Positions 1,518 through 13,542 of a stretch of DNA of 24,000 bases are shown one piece after another. Within the stretch, counting starts at the first letter, position 1. The number at the start of each line of letters is the position of its first letter. Origin of the DNA: Salirhabdus euzebyi (lineage in GTDB: Bacteria; Bacillota; Bacilli; Bacillales; Alkalibacillaceae); NCBI RefSeq assembly GCF_014207435.1, contig NZ_JACHGH010000008.1, forward strand, positions 17,667-41,666. The letters are read 5' to 3'. Made by a program: the position numbers and the translations under genes. The notes below the pieces were generated by a model. The model ran no database searches and was not told the DNA's origin. It saw only the letters and a list, made by a program, of their open reading frames with translations.

Positions 1518-3407
1518 TCAAGCCCTCTGTTTATTAGGAATCATTTCTGTAATCTTTCTTATTGCATTTTCTGTTGTTAAATCAATTTCATTCCACAACT
1601 CACTTACACTACCGTGCTCAATAAATTGGTCTGGGATTCCCATTCTTGCAATTTTAGTATTCATCTTTCCAGCTTCTTGGATAAATTCTAAAACTGCACT
1701 TCCAAATCCGCCCTGCAAAACATGTTCTTCAATCGTTAAAATAGGAATTTCTTCATGAAGGATTGTTTTGAGCATGGCTTCATCTAAAGGTTTAATGAAC
1801 CTCGCATTGACTACGCGTACCGACAAGTCCGATTGCTCTAAAATTCGACTTGCTTCTAAAGCCATATCTATTGTGGTACCAAAAGTTAAGATAACAGTAT
1901 CCTTACCTTCTTTTAACACTTCCCAAGTACCTATTGGAATTTCTTTCATTTCCTCATCTGTTGGTACTCCGGCGGCATTTCCTCTTGGATACCGAAGTGC
2001 TATTGGACCTTGATCATATTGCACAGCTGTATATACCATGTGCTGACACTCATTTTCATCTTTAGGCATCATAAGTACCATATTCGGTACGTGACGTAAA
2101 AACGATATATCGAAAACTCCTTGGTGTGTTTCCCCATCAGCTCCTACAAGACCGGCTCGATCTATTCCAAATATAACGTTTAAGTTTTGGCGACAAACAT
2201 CGTGTACCACCTGATCATATCCTCGTTGAAGGAAAGTAGAATAGATAGATAAAAACGGTTTCATGTCTTGAGTTGCTAATCCACCAGCAAGCGTTGTCGC
2301 ATGCTGTTCAGCAATACCAACATCAAATAATCGATCGGGAAATTCCTTTTTAAAGTCCTCTAATTTTGACCCGACTGTCATAGCCGGTGTTATCGCTACA
2401 ACTTTATTATTTGTTCGAGCAATTTTGGCTAACGCATCACTTACAACCTTACTCCACGCGGGTCCATTTGCCCTTTTTTTAATCGATTCTCCGGATTCAA
2501 TCTTATAGGGACCGACACCATGCCATGTACCAATCTTGTCCGCTTCAGCTGGATGATAGCCTTTCCCTTTTTTTGTTAGGACGTGAATAATAACAGGACC
2601 TTCCGTTTTTTTCGCGTATTTTAAATTCTCAAATAGACTATCAAAATTATGACCATCCACTGGACCATAATAAGTAAAACCTAATTCTTCAAAAAACATC
2701 CCAGGAACGACAAACGATTTCATACCATCCTTTATGCGTTCTGCGGTTTGAGCCAGTCGACCACCTACTGCAGGAATTTTTTTCAGGAGATATTCCATTT
2801 CATCTTTAAACCAATTGTATTTATTCGCACTACGTAATCGACCCAAAATATTATGAACAGCCCCAACGTTAGGGGCAATAGACATTTCGTTATCATTTAA
2901 TATAACAATTATATTCTTTTTTTCATGTCCAATATGGTTTAATGCTTCTAAGGCCATACCACCAGTTAAGGCACCATCTCCAATGATTGGAACAATATAA
3001 CTTTTTTCTCCTTTTAAGTCGCGAGCAATAGCCATTCCCATTGCAGCAGACAAAGAAGTTGAACTGTGGCCCGTTTCCCAAACATCATGTTCGCTTTCTA
3101 ACCGCTTCGGAAAACCACTCAGTCCTTTATGTTTTTTCAACGTATCAAACTGGTTTGTTCGGCCAGTTAGAATTTTATGAACATAGGATTGGTGGCCTAC
3201 ATCCCAAATAAATTTATCATCTGGACTATTAAATGCTTTATGAAGAGCTAAAGTTAATTCTACAACCCCAAGGTTTGGTCCTAAATGACCGCCAGTCTTA
3301 GATAAGGTGTCAATTAAAAACTCACGAATTTCCTCCGCAAGCTCCTCTAACTGTTTCGTTGAATACGTCTTTAAAAAAGCTGGATCTTGTATTTCCTTTA
3401 GATCCAT
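1518..3407 (-). CDS. dxs: 1-deoxy-D-xylulose-5-phosphate synthase
   Basis: 629-aa ORF with the TPP-binding motifs [13 protein letters not shown] and [16 protein letters not shown], and a transketolase-like C-terminus. ATG start with GAAGGTGAG upstream. Confidence 0.96.
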
Positions 3408-3423
3408 GATGGATCACTCACCT

Positions 3424-4026
3424 TCATTGGGAATTTCTTCCGTTCTTCCTTTTAAGCGCAGGAAGCACTCTAATATGTAAATGCTTCTCGATGAAGGCAA
3501 TTACTTTTCCTGCAAATAATATAATTTGGGTAGAAGAATGGATAGCAAAAAATTTACCTAACGCTTTTCCACCTACCGTAAAAGCTGCAACAATACTCGT
3601 GAATATTATGGAAATGGTAAATTGGTTAGTGGAACCTTCATTATAACCGAATCCGAGTGCTAATTGAAGGACAACAACTGCTGAGGCGGTACCGCTAATA
3701 ATCCCAGATATATCTCCAATTACGTCATTACAAAAACTTGCAAACCGGTCCGCATTTCTTACAATTACAATCGCTTGCCTAGATCCATGAACCTTTTCTG
3801 CTGCCATTGCGTGAAATGGAACTTCGTCTGCAGCAGTTGCAGCAATCCCAAACATGTCAAAAATGACACCAATTAAGACGATGCTTAAAACAATAAAAAT
3901 ACCAGCAAACCATCCGACACCATTTAATAAAATGGATGAAATAATTGAAAAAAGGGCCGCTAACACAAAAGTGATAACGGCAATTCCTATACTAAAGCGT
4001 AACGACTTGTTAAATTGCTGACTCAT
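3424..4026 (-). CDS. oapA: OLE-associated membrane protein OapA-like (small 4-TM protein)
   Basis: 200-aa ORF with hydrophobic segments at about residues 12-34, 39-63, 106-126 and 136-156. It has a hydrophilic loop, a DxxxD motif (D101-VIG-D105 in CNDVIGDISG) and a basic tail (RVLPALKRKNGRNSQ). GAGGAAG lies 7 nt before the ATG. The gene sits immediately downstream of the large non-coding segment and upstream of dxs, which is the position reported for oapA in OLE loci. B. subtilis has no equivalent gene here. Confidence 0.75.
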   Translation of the reverse strand: MSQQFNKSLRFSIGIAVITFVLAALFSIISSILLNGVGWFAGIFIVLSIVLIGVIFDMFGIAATAADEVPFHAMAAEKVHGSRQAIVIVRNADRFASFCNDVIGDISGIISGTASAVVVLQLALGFGYNEGSTNQFTISIIFTSIVAAFTVGGKALGKFFAIHSSTQIILFAGKVIAFIEKHLHIRVLPALKRKNGRNSQ

Positions 4027-4129
4027 TTTTATACTTCCTCTATATGTAAATAGTTATGAACAGTATGTTAATAAAAAATTGGCCTTTTGGTCAAAAATAA
4101 TCTTTGTTTATAAAATATAAAGAAAGGAA

Positions 4130-4760
4130 TGGTCATTTAATAAGTAAAAATTGCAGCTTAGGTCCAGTAGGTTTTCCCAATTGAATACCGCGAGTTGCCT
4201 CTACGGCGGTTCCCCTTTAAATTCAACTTAGCTCCGTCACCGAAAGCTAGACTGGATTACCACTTAGCCTGCACTATAATCCTCATTAAATGTCACAATC
4301 GAGTAGTCTAGGAGTTTTCCTCTACAGTCCTTTAACCGTTCCCTAGCCTCTTTTGCAGTGTTGATTTCAAATGGTATACAAGGCAGCAAATAGTGGCCTG
4401 CTATTTTACTGCATTAAACCATTATCCCCTCAACACCACTCAAGGCAGGCTACGCTGCAGATAGAGATTCCCAACCCTATCGTGCAGGTTCATACCCCAT
4501 CCCATAGCACTTCGCGGTAGCTTAATGCCACAGTAATGGGCCTCCGCGGAAGTAGGGTCAACGCCCACATGCCTTTGTGGATCGCCCCACAACCTTAACT
4601 CCCAGCACCGACCCAAGGCTGGGCGCCTCAAGCCGACACAAGGAACTTCATCGATGTGCCCTTTGGCGGATTTTTAGGCCCGCCTTCAAGAACGGGGGAC
4701 TGACTAGAATACTACACCATCCCTTTAGTACTATTAATATACCATACGTTCTTTCATGTT
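4130..4760 (-). ncRNA. ole: OLE (ornate, large, extremophilic) RNA candidate; ends approximate
   Basis: The 754-nt gap (4027-4780) between ispA and oapA has no credible ORF and is visibly GC-richer than the other spacers. It contains many short complementary pairs, for example 4601-4606/4618-4623 (6 bp), 4510-4517/4544-4552 (8 bp plus a bulge), 4396-4401/4445-4450 (6 bp), 4163-4168/4251-4256 (6 bp), 4187-4191/4206-4210 and 4665-4669/4680-4684. There is no terminator after ispA. The context xseA-xseB-ispA-[RNA]-oapA-dxs-tlyA-argR-recN matches the published OLE context. The strand is inferred from the operon orientation. Confidence 0.75.
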
Positions 4761-4780
4761 CTCAATTACAATTATTCTCA

Positions 4781-5659
4781 TTAATAGTCGCGATTACCTA
4801 AATAATCAATGAAATCATATAAAATTTCATGATTAACTTTTGCTGTTTTTAACGCTAGTGCAGCTTTTTCCATATACCATTCTTTTTTCTTTATCGTCTC
4901 GTCTAACCCTAATATTTTTGGATAGGTGCTCTTCTCACTCTGCTCATCACTACCAATTGGTTTACCTAATTTTTCTTCATTACCAATTACGTCTAATACG
5001 TCGTCTTGAATTTGAAAAATGAGTCCGAGGCAGGTAGCATATTCATCAATAGCCTCTATTTGTGGTGGAATAGCTCCTCCTAAATAGGCCCCTGCCCGTA
5101 TAGCAAACCGTATAAGCTCTCCTGTTTTAAGAAGATGAATCTGGTCCATTTCTTGCAAGGAAAGGGATTTTTTTTCCCCTTCTAAGTCAAGCATTTGTCC
5201 TGCTACCATACCTTCTGGTCCACTAGCCTGAGCCAATTCCCTAACCAAATAAACTTTTTCTTCTGCATGAAGAAAATTAGAGGTAGTAATAACATGAAAC
5301 GCCCCTGCAAGTAATCCATCACCGGCTAGTATTGCCGTTGCATCATCAAACTTTTTATGATTTGTCGGTTTCCCTCTTCGAAAATCATCATTATCCATTG
5401 CAGGCAAATCATCATGTATTAAAGAATATGTATGAACCATTTCTAACGCAGCAGCTGGATGTACAACTTTTTTATCTATCGGACGAAATGCTTCATAAGC
5501 AGCCATCATTAATATTGGCCGAAGCCTTTTACCCCCAGCTTTTATGGAATATAGCATGGACTCCTTAAGTCGCTTTGGACTGTTAAATTCGTTTACAATT
5601 GCCTCAAGCTCGTAATTGAACCATTCTTGTTTTTCCTTTACATAATTTAAAAAAGTCAC
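4781..5659 (-). CDS. ispA: Farnesyl diphosphate synthase (polyprenyl synthetase family)
   Basis: 292-aa ORF with the two Asp-rich motifs LIHDDLPAMDNDDFRRG and FQIQDDVLD. GTG start with AGGAGGA 9 nt upstream, 5 nt after the xseB stop. Confidence 0.94.
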   Translation of the reverse strand: MTFLNYVKEKQEWFNYELEAIVNEFNSPKRLKESMLYSIKAGGKRLRPILMMAAYEAFRPIDKKVVHPAAALEMVHTYSLIHDDLPAMDNDDFRRGKPTNHKKFDDATAILAGDGLLAGAFHVITTSNFLHAEEKVYLVRELAQASGPEGMVAGQMLDLEGEKKSLSLQEMDQIHLLKTGELIRFAIRAGAYLGGAIPPQIEAIDEYATCLGLIFQIQDDVLDVIGNEEKLGKPIGSDEQSEKSTYPKILGLDETIKKKEWYMEKAALALKTAKVNHEILYDFIDYLGNRDY

Positions 5660-5664
5660 GCTAC

Positions 5665-5901
5665 TTATTCCTCCTGCACTGAAAACGGCTTTAGCTCACC
5701 TTGTTCGTTTAATATTTGTTCCATCTGTTTTTCTACTTTTGTTAGTTTGTCATTACAAAATTTGGATAATTTCATTCCTTCTTGGTAATAATCAATTGCT
5801 TTTTCTAAAGGAACATCGCCTTCTTCTAATTTCTCTACAATAGCTTCTAACTTCATAATAGCTTCTTCAAAACTTACTTCTTTATTTTGATCTTCCGTCA
5901 T
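5665..5901 (-). CDS. xseB: Exodeoxyribonuclease VII small subunit
   Basis: 78-aa [43 protein letters not shown], typical of XseB. It overlaps the xseA 3' end by 20 nt. Confidence 0.93.
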
Positions 5902-7243
5902 TTTTATCCTCCTCTAATCCCCATACTTGGCAGTCAACTAATCCATCCTTCAATTTAACAAACATTTTGTCCCCGGGTTGTACATCCTTTATTGTCTTGA
6001 CAACTTCTCTCTTTTCATTATAAGGAATGGCATATCCCCGTTGAATAATTTCCAGTGGGTTTAAAAGCGTTAATTTTTCTATCTTATGTGTAAAGGATTG
6101 TTGTTTCGTTTTTATTTGTTGTTCCATTGCTCGTTGTTGACGCTCTGTTAACTTTTGTAGCTCAAGTTTTGTCTGTTCTACTTTTCGAGCTGGATGAAGT
6201 TGAGCTAGTCTTTTAGAAATAAAATCACTTTTTTCTTTCTTATATGTAACATATTGCTTGGAAACCTTTTGTAATTGATCAAAAAGTCTGTCTAAGTCTT
6301 GCTCTTTCTGCTTTAACAATTGCTCTGGGTATCGAAAAGCATAAGATTGCTGTATGGAAGTAAGTCTTTCTTTTCTTGTGGAAATATGCATAGAAGCGCT
6401 TTTTTGTATGCGCTTGGTCATTATCGTAATTCTGTCCTGTACATCCAGCAAAGATGGAACTGCCAACTCTGCTGCTCCCGTAGGTGTAGGAGCCCTTAAG
6501 TCAGAAGCAAAATCACTTATCGTAAAGTCTGTTTCATGTCCTACAGCTGAGATAATAGGTACGTTTGATTGAACGATTGCTCGAGCTACCATTTCTTCAT
6601 TAAAGCTCCACAATTCCTCAATGGAACCTCCACCTCGTCCAATTATTAACACATCAAACATATTTAAGTCGTTTGCCTTTTTAATAGCTTGTACAATTGA
6701 CTTTGCTGCATAATCGCCTTGTACCAAAACGGGAAGTAACGTTTTCTTCACAATTGGATACCTTCTATTTATTGTGGAAAAAATATCTCGTACTGCAGCA
6801 CCCGTAGGAGAAGTAATGACACCGACATGTTCTGGATATAAAGGGATTTTCTTTTTTCTATCTTGACGAAATAACCCTTCATTTTCGAGTTTTTCCTTCA
6901 GTTGCTCATAAGCTAGATAAAGAGCACCTATACCATCTGGTTGCATTTGGTGTATATAAAGCTGGTATTGTCCGTGGGGTTCATAGACACCTATTTCACC
7001 TTCGACGAGGACATTCATCCCATTTTCAGGTCTGAATTTTATCTGTTTATTATGACCAGCAAACATGACTGCTTGAATTTTAGACTGATTATCTTTCAAG
7101 GTTAAATACATATGACCTCTAGAGTGTTGCGTAAAGTTTGAAATTTCCCCTTTTAAATATACCCGCTTCAAATTAGGATCTGTTTCCATTTTTCTTCTTA
7201 TATATCTTGTTAACGCTGTAACCGTTAAGTACCGATCCTTCAC
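5882..7243 (-). CDS. xseA: Exodeoxyribonuclease VII large subunit
   Basis: 453-aa ORF with an OB-fold N-terminus ([24 protein letters not shown]), the catalytic core ([25 protein letters not shown]) and a coiled-coil C-terminus. GTG start with AAAGGGG upstream. Confidence 0.94.
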
Positions 7244-8588: not shown

Positions 8589-8865
8589 GTTACATGCTCC
8601 TTTTTTATATCATCAAAAATAGTATCATTAGTTAATTTCACCGTAATTCGTTTCCTTAAACGATGAAAAATATGACTTCATTTTCCTTTGAATGATAACA
8701 TTTTAAAGAAATAAAAGCTATTTAAAGGGGTATTCGTTAAAATAGTGAGCCAAAAAACCGCATCCATTAGGCATAAGAATCTATCCGGTGAGAAACTCCT
8801 AGCCACATAAGGTCAATCACCAAGAGAGAAATCGTTCTCTTTATAAGGATATTTTCGCAGTTTAT

Positions 8866-9163
8866 GTAAACTACGACAAACTATAGCTATGACTGTTGAG
8901 TGTTACACCGCCGCTTCGGCAGAATACTTCACTTTCCACGGGCACGGCCTCAGCCGCCTCGCGGAAAACCACCGCTGTGGGGTCTTCAGACACGTGCTTA
9001 GCGAAGGAAATACACGTAGACTCCTTCAGGACAGCGAAGACGTTGAGACCCCAACAGCGAGCGTTCTGTGCGAGTGAGAAGGCTCAACGCGAGCCCTAAA
9101 GGTGCGGGTAGTGTATTTCCTTAGCGGCTGTGATTTATACATATAAGTTACATCGCAGTTTCC
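8866..9163. repeat. Composite GC-rich palindromic repeat element A (half unit plus full unit, with imperfect terminal inverted repeats); MITE/REP-like, family unnamed
   Basis: The full unit is 8997-9130 and closes with a perfect 12-bp stem (9004-9015 aaggaaatacac / 9111-9122 gtgtatttcctt). An oppositely oriented half unit lies at about 8911-8996. The termini 8866-8886 (gtaaactacgacaaactatag) and 9143-9163 (rc ggaaactgcgatgtaacttat) are imperfect inverted repeats related to the ends of element B. Element A aligns unit-by-unit with 11781-12217. Confidence 0.8.
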
Positions 9164-9189: not shown

Positions 9190-9225
9190 TTATATAAAGA
9201 AGAAAAGGTCACAGAAATAACTCTG
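9190..9225 (-). terminator. Rho-independent terminator after the Asp23-family gene
   Basis: The stem aaaggtcacag (9194-9204) / ctgtgaccttt (9212-9222) is followed on the minus-strand RNA by UUUUCUUCUUU. It lies 12 nt after the stop at 9237. Confidence 0.8.
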
Positions 9226-9236
9226 TGACCTTTGCA

Positions 9237-11588: not shown

Positions 11589-11780
11589 TTCCGGCACTCC
11601 TTCATTTTTTATAATTTAATATTAGGTACTAATAACTCCTCTTAACATTTTATTATAAGTTAGTATAAAACTTCAACTCGAAAAGAGAACGTTTCCTTAA
11701 TTATTTCCATTAGTAACGGTTAATTCCCTTTAAAAAAATTTATAAAGGCAGTTTACTCAAGATTTTTATTTTACATAATA

Positions 11781-12217
11781 GATGGAAACTGCGACACAAT
11801 TAAGACAAAAAAAAGCGACCATTCTATACATGTTGAGAGATAATCCGACGCCGCGGAAACATACTCGCTTTCCATGGGCAAGGCTTCAGTCTCCTCGCGG
11901 GAAAACGCCGCTGCGGGGCCTTCAGACTCTTGCTCTCCCATTGGAGTCTTGCATGTTTCCGCTGCTTTGTTTAGTGGTCTTTACGTGCGAGAAGAAATCC
12001 CAAAACAAAAGCCTGGTGTTTTCACTACTCATAATTAAAAACATTTAACCTTAGCGGAGGCAGAATACGCAGACTCCTATGGGAAGTGTGAGCTATGTGA
12101 GACCCCGCAGACGAAGTCGAGGAGGCTCACGGGGAACCCATGGAAAGCGAAGTATTCTGCAGCAGCGACCTGCTACCACATGCTTCAAGCTATATTAGTT
12201 ACGTCGCATTATCCATC
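11781..12217. repeat. Composite GC-rich palindromic repeat element B (two inverted units around an AT-rich spacer, 24-nt imperfect terminal inverted repeats); same family as element A
   Basis: Unit B1 is about 11850-11965 (closing stem 11853-11862 gcggaaacat / 11953-11962 atgtttccgc). Unit B2 is about 12049-12170 in the opposite orientation (closing stem 12060-12068 gcagaatac / 12152-12160 gtattctgc). An AT-rich spacer of about 85 nt lies at 11966-12048. The termini 11781-11804 (gatggaaactgcgacacaattaag) and 12194-12217 (rc gatggataatgcgacgtaactaat) match at 18 of 24 positions. Confidence 0.8.
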
Positions 12218-12261
12218 AACTATGAACTAGTGAAAAAATCGCCATCTATTGAAAGAATAAA

Positions 12262-12918: not shown

Positions 12919-13542
12919 TTACGATTTAGGGTTTGCTGTAACTCTATGGGTAGGTACATCTAGAACTGTTGAAACGGCCTCAACGACCATTTTCTTTACT
13001 TCTATGTTTTGCAAGCCTGATGCCACCACCATAACGCCACGTACATCTGGTTTTTTAACCTGTATTAAAAGTGGCGATTCCTCATTATTTCTTCGAATGA
13101 TCACACTTTGTTCATCCTTGGTAAGTTCTTCAATCGTTCTTTCTCCACCATTTGTATCTGTCTCTTGCGTTGTTTGTTGACTTTCGACTGTATTTGTTGC
13201 ATATATTTTCAGATTCGTCGCGTCTAAGTTGATCATAATATCAACGTTAGAAACGCCATCCAAGCTTTCAAGAATAGCTTTTAGTTCTCTTTCAAACTTA
13301 CTTTCCATTTCTGAAATGATAGCGGTCTTATCGTCCTCTGTTAATAGGGGTTCATTTTGTTTTTGCTCCATACTATTGTTTCCCTCATTTAGATAAGGGT
13401 TCGCACTATCTTCTTCTTGGAACATACTACTTAGTAGAACAAGTAATAACCCTATTAAGCCTAAGATAATAATGTATGAGAATTTTGTAGGCTTTCCGTT
13501 CTCATCCCTTTTGATTTTAAAAAGTGACCATATGTTTTTCAC
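12919..13542 (-). CDS. spoIIIAG: Stage III sporulation protein AG
   Basis: 207-aa ORF with an N-terminal TM segment (YIIILGLIGLLLVLL) and a C-terminal ring-forming domain (VRGVMVVASG...VVEAVSTVLDVPTHRV). The GTG start overlaps the spoIIIAF TGA (GTGA), with GGAGGGGGG upstream. Confidence 0.9.
   Translation of the reverse strand: MKNIWSLFKIKRDENGKPTKFSYIIILGLIGLLLVLLSSMFQEEDSANPYLNEGNNSMEQKQNEPLLTEDDKTAIISEMESKFERELKAILESLDGVSNVDIMINLDATNLKIYATNTVESQQTTQETDTNGGERTIEELTKDEQSVIIRRNNEESPLLIQVKKPDVRGVMVVASGLQNIEVKKMVVEAVSTVLDVPTHRVTANPKS

Follow-up and report, generated by a model that had tools for sequence, protein, structure and literature searches.

A full-length OLE RNA gene and its oapA partner in Salirhabdus euzebyi

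OLE (ornate, large, extremophilic) RNA is a membrane-associated RNA of about 600 nt. It is anchored by the protein OapA and has been implicated in alcohol, cold and Mg2+ stress, and its biochemical function is unknown (PMC12265935, PMC11332333, PMC3413148). OLE RNAs have been surveyed in more than 2,800 genomes (PMC11332333). Here we consider a 24-kb stretch of the Salirhabdus euzebyi genome (the window, 24,000 nt in full). A reading of its letters (the original prediction) had placed an OLE RNA at 4130-4760, between ispA and dxs. Its portrait of OLE, with a first report in 2006, agrees with the papers cited above. We argue it is near certain that the ole gene of S. euzebyi, which encodes a full-length OLE RNA, occupies 4113-4736 on the minus strand, and that 3424-4026 is oapA. 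For the explanation as a whole, which joins this identity to a proposed working of OLE and OapA, we put the probability at roughly 0.88. The predicted OapA protein of the window is 100% identical to a S. euzebyi protein. The host is one of the Bacillaceae, within the Bacillota, and OLE hosts are Bacillota that are typically extremophiles or anaerobes. S. euzebyi is halotolerant.

The closest described system is the ole gene of Halalkalibacterium (Bacillus) halodurans C-125 (RF01071). The S. euzebyi locus resembles it in its full-length model match and in the same helices, P1-P3.1 included. It also has the A-rich P4 loop, the P9 GGCC loop and the P13 GNRA loop with its bulge. A proximal extended -10 promoter precedes it, oapA lies downstream, and the neighbourhood of ispA, dxs, xseAB, tlyA and argR is the same. 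The H. halodurans sequence itself lies outside the loci that were fetched. The OLE RNAs of Clostridium acetobutylicum and C. botulinum, solved as dimers by cryo-EM (PDB 9LCR; Kretsch et al. 2025), share the L4 loop, the L9.3 GGCC loop and a 12-bp P3/P3.1 stack with the window RNA. However, the window RNA shares only 53-58% identity with the clostridial-type homologs of the alignment described below, and its own dimer is predicted from sequence. GOLLD, ROOL and the raiA motif are, like OLE, large and highly structured non-coding RNAs of unknown biochemical function, and GOLLD and ROOL form homo-oligomers (PMC12286853). OLE has no sequence or structural relationship to any of them, and the Rfam scan of the window gives OLE only. 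Unlike them, it is chromosomal and linked to a membrane protein, and its oligomer is a dimer, not a nanocage.

The identity of the segment is best judged by the family match. The entire window was scanned against all 4,227 Rfam families, with results given in window coordinates throughout. The sole match above threshold is OLE (RF01071), on the minus strand at 4113-4736, which is close to the interval first proposed. It scores 530 bits with the covariance model, against a gathering score of 50 (E 4.9e-153). The original prediction had named this search as the way to check it, and the outcome could hardly be clearer. The match is 624 nt long and untruncated, spanning model positions 1-616 of 616. 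Eleven homologs sampled across the identity range are also full-length OLE RNAs by Rfam, at 374-550 bits, and the S. euzebyi score lies at the upper end of the family range. The model has 159 consensus pairs in 18 helices, and 149 of these pairs are canonical in the window sequence. Folded alone, the 624-nt RNA reaches -229 kcal/mol (z = -6.2 against dinucleotide shuffles). Its GC content is 0.473, while that of the window is 0.368. We count no point against the OLE identity.

Related loci were collected by searching one genome per species with the 200-aa protein encoded downstream. This gave 80 loci from Bacillaceae and Clostridia, of which 78 can be assessed; the remaining two end before the upstream DNA. 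An OLE-like sequence lies directly upstream of the gene for this small membrane protein, on the same strand, in 78/78 assessable loci, so the conservation in relatives that the original prediction expected is complete. The 78 OLE sequences (the window and 77 others) were aligned with MAFFT, blind to structure, and the Rfam structure was projected from the window row (alignment A1). With this structure 90.2% of cells fall in standard pairs, compared with 40-46% after a shift of the partners by 1-3 columns. Both sides change in 119 of 155 Rfam pairs, and none of 500 shuffles reaches any observed measure. The family structure covaries, and the ornate fold of about 25 helices that is expected of OLE is backed by covariation here.

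The Rfam model leaves its first 53 positions unpaired. Recent OLE consensus models, on the other hand, close the RNA by stems P1-P3.1. When the columns of the 5' region were compared with all others by mutual information, P1, P2, P3 and P3.1 emerged without prior input. In A1 these stems have 96.7% of cells paired, compared with 28-49% in slid controls, and both sides change in 18 of 25 pairs. P1 is paired in 98.5% of cells, with both-side changes in 6 of its 8 pairs. P2 is paired in 100%, and U-A is replaced by C-G in 9 sequences. P3.1 is paired in 96%, and all 6 of its pairs change on both sides. Together P3 and P3.1 make 12 bp in the window, in agreement with the published length of the stack, which has been proposed to span the membrane (PMC12265935). 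Covariation shows the two-domain architecture of the family in this RNA. P1 and P2 close domain 2, and the 12-bp stack joins domain 2 to domain 1 (P4-P9).

The elements through which OLE contacts itself and its proteins can be located as well (Table 1). All 6 Rfam pairs of P4 form in the window; the hairpin is 100% paired in A1, 5 of the 6 pairs covary and the loop is invariant. This A-rich loop is a dimer contact (the A-A bridge) in OLE cryo-EM structures (PMC12286853, PMC12265935). The L9 loop is an intermolecular kissing-loop bridge, B3, of the OLE dimer, where GGCC, GAUC and AGCU covary (PMC12286853). Both dimerisation elements, the A-rich L4 loop and a palindromic GGCC loop, are present in the window sequence. 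From this conserved sequence and the published cryo-EM structures of clostridial OLE RNAs, we infer that two OLE RNAs may dimerise through the P4 loop, other loop contacts and the P9 kissing loop. OapA-binding sites have been mapped 'in or near P2 and P4a' (PMC12265935). By analogy, the CUAG palindrome of P2 would lie in the region of one of these sites, and the AUCGAU palindrome would be the second region, an assignment that follows PMC12265935. All 8 Rfam pairs of P13 form in the window; 92% of its A1 cells are paired and 7 of the 8 pairs covary. Binding of OapB needs the P13 GNRA loop and a 1-nt bulge (PMC7936274), and both determinants are present. P14.1, a probable hairpin here, is a weak secondary OapB site in H. 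halodurans (PMC7936274).

Table 1. Positions of the ole gene of S. euzebyi, its structural elements, its promoter and adjacent genes in the window
Feature	Position	Strand	Basis and remarks
OLE RNA gene (extent of RF01071 match)	4113..4736	-	covariance model, pairs, minimum free energy, conserved columns, covariation
P1 5' strand (GGGAUGGU)	4716..4723	-	mutual information; pairs with 4126-4133; absent from Rfam model
P1 3' strand (ACCAUUCC)	4126..4133	-	mutual information, covariation
P2 5' strand (UCUAG)	4704..4708	-	pairs with 4307-4311; contains CUAG palindrome
P3 5' strand (4697-4702) and P3.1 5' strand (4690-4695)	4690..4702	-	partners 4325-4330 and 4336-4341
P3 and P3.1 3' strands (GGACUG; GAACGG)	4325..4341	-	mutual information, covariation
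P4 hairpin with invariant A-rich loop (CCUAAAAA, 4671-4678)	4665..4684	-	Rfam helix
AUCGAU palindrome, P4a region	4650..4655	-	nearly invariant in A1
GGCC palindrome, terminal loop of long P9 stem (L9.3)	4395..4398	-	invariant in A1
P13 hairpin (GUGA tetraloop 4237-4240, single bulged U 4244)	4229..4249	-	Rfam helix
P14.1 hairpin, probable (GCAA tetraloop 4195-4198)	4187..4207	-	Rfam pairs, A1 covariation
-35 box TTGAGA of proximal ole promoter	4760..4765	-	promoter scan
Extended -10 box TGgTATATT	4736..4744	-	promoter scan, conservation across loci
ole-oapA spacer with oapA ribosome-binding site GAGGAAG (4034-4040)	4027..4112	-	sequence
oapA, 200-aa membrane protein with four transmembrane helices	3424..4026	-	hydropathy, DxxxD, fold match, position
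ispA (farnesyl diphosphate synthase), upstream neighbour	4781..5659	-	NF045485 FPPsyn, 390.9 bits
dxs, downstream neighbour after oapA	1518..3407	-	TIGR00204, 952 bits

The helices read from the sequence alone fared less well than the identity. Six had been named. Two of them, 4163-4168/4251-4256 and 4665-4669/4680-4684, are exact in the Rfam structure. A third, 4187-4191/4206-4210, finds the right hairpin but in a register that is off by 3 nt. The remaining three (4601-4606/4618-4623, 4510-4517/4544-4552 and 4396-4401/4445-4450) are outside the consensus and do not covary in A1. Neither these three nor the shifted register show both-side changes beyond chance, and in two of the three only 36-68% of A1 cells are paired. 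The helix 4601-4606/4618-4623 is conserved, yet it clashes with a covarying 20-bp helix. One of the three is an intramolecular helix that uses the GGCC loop, and it is unsupported in A1.

It is worth considering where the RNA begins. A promoter scan finds a strong promoter-like site, TTGAGA-18-TATATT, at 4765-4736 (10/12), with an upstream TG. A TTGAGN hexamer at the same spacing occurs in most of the 78 loci. The TG-extended -10 occurs in 72, clostridial ones included, and in 55 it ends 17-19 nt ahead of the invariant U of P1. The proximal promoter is thus conserved from Bacillaceae to Clostridia. We predict a transcription start at about 4729 (+/-2), 6 nt before P1. In H. halodurans the homologous proximal promoter has been validated and raises OLE expression more than 100-fold, and the 5' ends of OLE have been mapped close to where P1 begins (PMC3413148). 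The S. euzebyi gene has its own conserved extended -10 promoter, which at the level of sequence is predicted to be active. RF01071 model positions 1 to about 13 (window 4724-4736) overlap the -10 box and the stretch before the start, so the first dozen or so positions of the match are probably promoter DNA and not RNA. The mature RNA probably extends from about 4729 to a point shortly beyond 4126. From the predicted start to the end of P1 is about 604 nt, which agrees with the usual OLE length of about 600 nt.

The original prediction held that no terminator follows ispA and that the RNA is therefore co-transcribed with it. The first point stands, since a scan of 3300-6000 finds nothing terminator-like behind either ispA or OLE. 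For this reason part of the RNA may come from ispA read-through. However, the second point overlooks the conserved proximal promoter, whose counterpart is the main source of OLE in H. halodurans. The observations of the original prediction are partly confirmed and its interpretation is supported. The locus could be recognised from raw sequence, but the helix calls and the transcription argument made in this way cannot be trusted without tools.

The gene directly downstream has no Pfam or NCBIfam family above threshold. Pfam CNNM is sub-threshold (E = 3.4; 7.7 bits, where the cutoff is 28.4), and a sequence search against PDB chains returns only chance matches to coronavirus spike (E >= 0.075). 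Other properties are more telling. Hydropathy peaks at residues 15-33, 43-61, 106-124 and 138-156 give four predicted transmembrane helices. The DxxxD motif is D101-V-I-G-D105, and both aspartates are invariant in 41 homologs, clostridial ones included. CBS and CorC domains are absent. With these features and its position beside ole, the product has what has been published for OapA (PMC11332333, PMC12265935). OapA is also described as carrying a cluster of basic residues on its cytoplasmic face and as lacking a proline that CNNM domains conserve. Along the primary sequence of the window protein, lysine and arginine are concentrated at 78-94 and 174-197, and the only prolines are at residues 70 and 189. 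The AlphaFold model is all-helical (pLDDT 66.6). Its top five PDB matches in Foldseek are the transmembrane domains of CorB (7M1T, 7M1U) and CorC (7CFG), with probabilities of 0.96-1.00 and query TM-scores of 0.44-0.54 (0.52-0.54 for the best chains). The modelled fold thus appears distantly CNNM/CorB-like, in agreement with a published comparison that likens H. halodurans OapA to MpfA/CNNM-type transporters (PMC11332333). In the models the nearest known proteins would be MpfA, CorB and CorC, the CNNM Mg2+ transporters. OapA differs from CNNM proteins in its lack of CBS and CorC domains at 200 aa and in having four transmembrane helices and not three. It also has the DxxxD motif, which CNNM domains lack. 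Neither oapB nor oapC was found in the 24-kb window; oapB occurs in only about 60% of OLE species and oapC in only about 45% (PMC11332333).

We propose the following working for the locus. The main source of OLE RNA would be its own extended -10 promoter of sigma-A type, with a start a few nucleotides ahead of P1, as the sequence and the H. halodurans case suggest. The RNA would dimerise, and OapA would bind the palindromic sites that flank P3/P3.1 and hold the particle at or in the membrane, by analogy with H. halodurans biochemistry. On the same grounds the P13 GUGA loop and bulge would recruit OapB, if the genome has one. The particle may help the cell to withstand alcohols, cold, excess Mg2+ and poor carbon sources. 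MpfA-type transporters have CBS and CorC regulatory domains, whereas OapA consists of the CNNM/CorB-like transmembrane domain alone, and for this reason we prefer the RNA as its regulator. OLE RNA would replace the missing CBS/CorC regulatory or sensing role, tuning divalent-cation handling and wider stress responses. By analogy this is the function we find most likely, but only tentatively, at somewhat less than even odds.

Several points weigh against this picture. Expression, localisation and phenotypes are known for H. halodurans only, and the ideas of a transmembrane RNA and of transporter regulation are hypotheses from the literature. Confidence in the OapA model is only moderate, and even the best Foldseek E-value, 0.019, is weak. 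The spacer between ole and oapA is unusually long at 99 nt and carries a run of six U, so some termination between the two genes is possible.

One can imagine a different role, in which the main task of OLE is not to regulate ion handling by OapA but to act as a ribozyme, or else to regulate translation by sequestering the ribosomal protein bS21. Its size, conservation and complexity are typical of ribozymes, and catalysis is a long-standing proposal (PMC11332333). However, neither catalysis nor splicing nor self-cleavage has been observed (PMC3413148). Binding of bS21 is reported (PMC12054373), as is a bS21-like pocket in the dimer (PMC12286853). Against both proposals, OLE co-occurs almost obligately with OapA and anticorrelates with MpfA, which point to a function tied to OapA (PMC11332333). 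We consider a primary ribozyme or bS21 role unlikely, but still a serious contender. The three roles are not mutually exclusive, and the window sequence does not discriminate among them.

It could also be argued that the segment is no free-standing RNA at all but a cis-acting leader, a riboswitch or attenuator that controls oapA and dxs. It does immediately precede oapA, in the same orientation. A single hairpin of the spacer between them has a U-run, 4094-4068 (U6, -2.0 kcal/mol), so there is no strong terminator. Without a convincing one oapA is probably read from the same transcripts as OLE, and it probably depends on the same promoter. However, the full-length match is to a family of stable, abundant RNAs of about 600 nt that give a single Northern band, and OLE acts in trans, both in binding its proteins and in complementation from a distal locus (PMC3413148). 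An expression platform is absent, with neither a terminator nor an anti-terminator, and the ribosome-binding site of oapA is unsequestered in the predicted spacer fold. The size and complexity of the segment are far beyond those of known leaders. We regard a leader as very improbable.

The spacer itself is worth a closer look. From P1 to the oapA ATG is 99 nt, compared with a median of 42.5 (interquartile range 36-63.5), and it is as long in only 10 of the 78 loci. The extra sequence contains a weak promoter-like site, TTGACC-18-TAACAT. In 57 of the 78 OLE loci the 30 nt that follow the P1 3' strand contain an ACATA motif, usually at offsets 4-9; in shuffled sequences the mean count is 5.7 and the highest is 14. 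The window differs from most OLE loci in this respect too, as it has no ACATA beside P1; the motif occurs in its spacer only at about 4069 and 4048. ACATA could mark the 3' end of OLE RNA or its processing, as a signal not described so far, or it could belong to the oapA 5' untranslated region. The long spacer, the U6 run and the weak promoter-like site could partly uncouple OLE and OapA expression in the S. euzebyi lineage. Taken jointly, we think it improbable, though not far-fetched, that the ACATA signal and this uncoupling are new features. Neither ACATA nor the expanded spacer alters the identity of the locus.

The absent ACATA and the unusually long spacer might instead mark a decaying or non-functional remnant of OLE. 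In addition, 252 columns are conserved at 90% or more among the other 77 sequences; the window agrees with 245 of them, and its 7 deviations include a C to U change at 4714. These substitutions set it apart from typical RF01071 members, at the level of lineage only, and several are compensatory. At least 2 of the 7 form compensatory pairs. The pair 4270/4155 has gone from G-C to A-U in the window, and A1 has 75 G-C and 2 A-U there. At 4714 C is found in 99% of the other sequences; the change to U comes with G to A at 4304 and gives a U-A pair. A change of U to C at 4303 gives G-C at 4715/4303, so that the 4-bp helix adjoining P2 is kept and strengthened. This helix is outside the Rfam model and is invariant elsewhere save in one clostridial sequence, which carries its own compensated version. 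Such changes imply continuing selection on structure and not a decaying copy. The bit score at the upper end of the family range, the 149 of 159 intact pairs and an intact promoter and oapA argue the same way. We find decay scarcely credible.

The weakest alternative is that the segment codes for protein, with one or both of the open reading frames (ORFs) at 4440..4631 (minus) and 4577..4801 (plus) as real small genes and the conservation that of a protein. Both ORFs do exist, and the plus-strand span inside OLE stays open in 48 of 77 homologs. However, just 7 of 77 homologs keep the minus-strand ORF open, homolog lengths fall in every class modulo 3, and substitutions within the RNA helices compensate one another pair by pair. 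The plus-strand ORF lies antisense to the promoter and reaches into the 3' end of ispA. Frame conservation, periodicity and composition effectively refute this reading. The original prediction had already rejected both, and rightly so. The spacer from the ispA stop (4781) to the next start (4026) is indeed 754 nt, and the two ORFs there overlap and have no Shine-Dalgarno-like sequence in the 25 nt upstream. Their composition is as odd as had been noted (Arg+Pro+Gly+Trp 0.37 and 0.23, compared with 0.16 in real genes). Across the 78 homologs neither frame shows codon periodicity, with no excess of variation at third positions (p = 0.98, 0.79).

The gene neighbourhood is that of a typical OLE locus. 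On the minus strand the window reads mntR-like, patatin-like, yqhR, aroQ, M24 peptidase, efp, spoIIIAA-AH, accB, accC, yqhY (Asp23), nusB, folD, xseA, xseB, ispA, OLE, oapA, dxs, tlyA, argR and the start of recN. The first 146 nt of the window encode a RecN-like N-terminus with GETGAGKS. The order from xseA to recN is as had been described. Among the 78 loci ispA is directly upstream of OLE in 74, and 67 have oapA and dxs, in that order, downstream. In 43 all ten genes from yqhY to argR stand in the identical order. A neighbourhood of such housekeeping genes (isoprenoid synthesis, DNA repair, translation, yqhY) is characteristic of OLE.

A few other features of the window should be mentioned. 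Directly after the yqhY stop, at 9200-9232 on the minus strand, a hairpin is followed by a T-run (AAAGGUCACAGAG-UUAUUU-CUGUGACCUUUUCUUCUUU). By eye it looks like an intrinsic terminator, which would separate accBC-yqhY from the nusB-folD-xseAB-ispA genes. A 207-aa ORF at 12919-13542 (minus), between spoIIIAF and spoIIIAH, has no Pfam match and should be spoIIIAG by position. A dispersed GC-rich repeat that has inverted symmetry within it occurs in three diverged copies, at 8895-9130, 11763-11975 and 12040-12240. One is in the yqhY-nusB spacer and two, in inverted orientation, are in the accB-spoIIIAH spacer. They are 65-78% identical over a core of about 130 nt, and their fold z-scores are weak, -0.25 to -2.85. 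Two inverted copies of related sequence occur in the syntenic yqhY-nusB spacer of two Gracilibacillus species (799-898 and 1060-1165 in locus L038; also L019), and none was found in the other related loci. The repeat looks like a MITE- or REP-like element. The GC-rich patches at about 8900-9130 and 11770-12240 had been candidates for further structured RNAs, and we reject them as copies of this repeat with weak fold z-scores. Rfam assigns these patches to no family, with only sub-threshold chance matches to JPX_2 and L10_leader. The repeat also bears on the claim that the OLE segment is richer in GC than every other spacer. This holds for whole-spacer means (0.43, compared with 0.41 or less), but not locally, since 8851-9150 reaches 0.507 because of the repeat, compared with an OLE maximum of 0.517.

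The ole gene of S. euzebyi is an ordinary full-length member of a catalogued family and in that sense already known. The name 'Salirhabdus' does not occur in one small supplement file of PMC11332333. The Rfam model detects such copies at default thresholds, so this one adds little. What it does supply is independent compensatory changes at near-invariant pairs (4270/4155; 4714/4304). OLE is among the largest and best-conserved bacterial non-coding RNAs with unknown biochemical function. Recent structures suggest it may be the first natural membrane-spanning RNA, and each annotated copy is of some comparative value.

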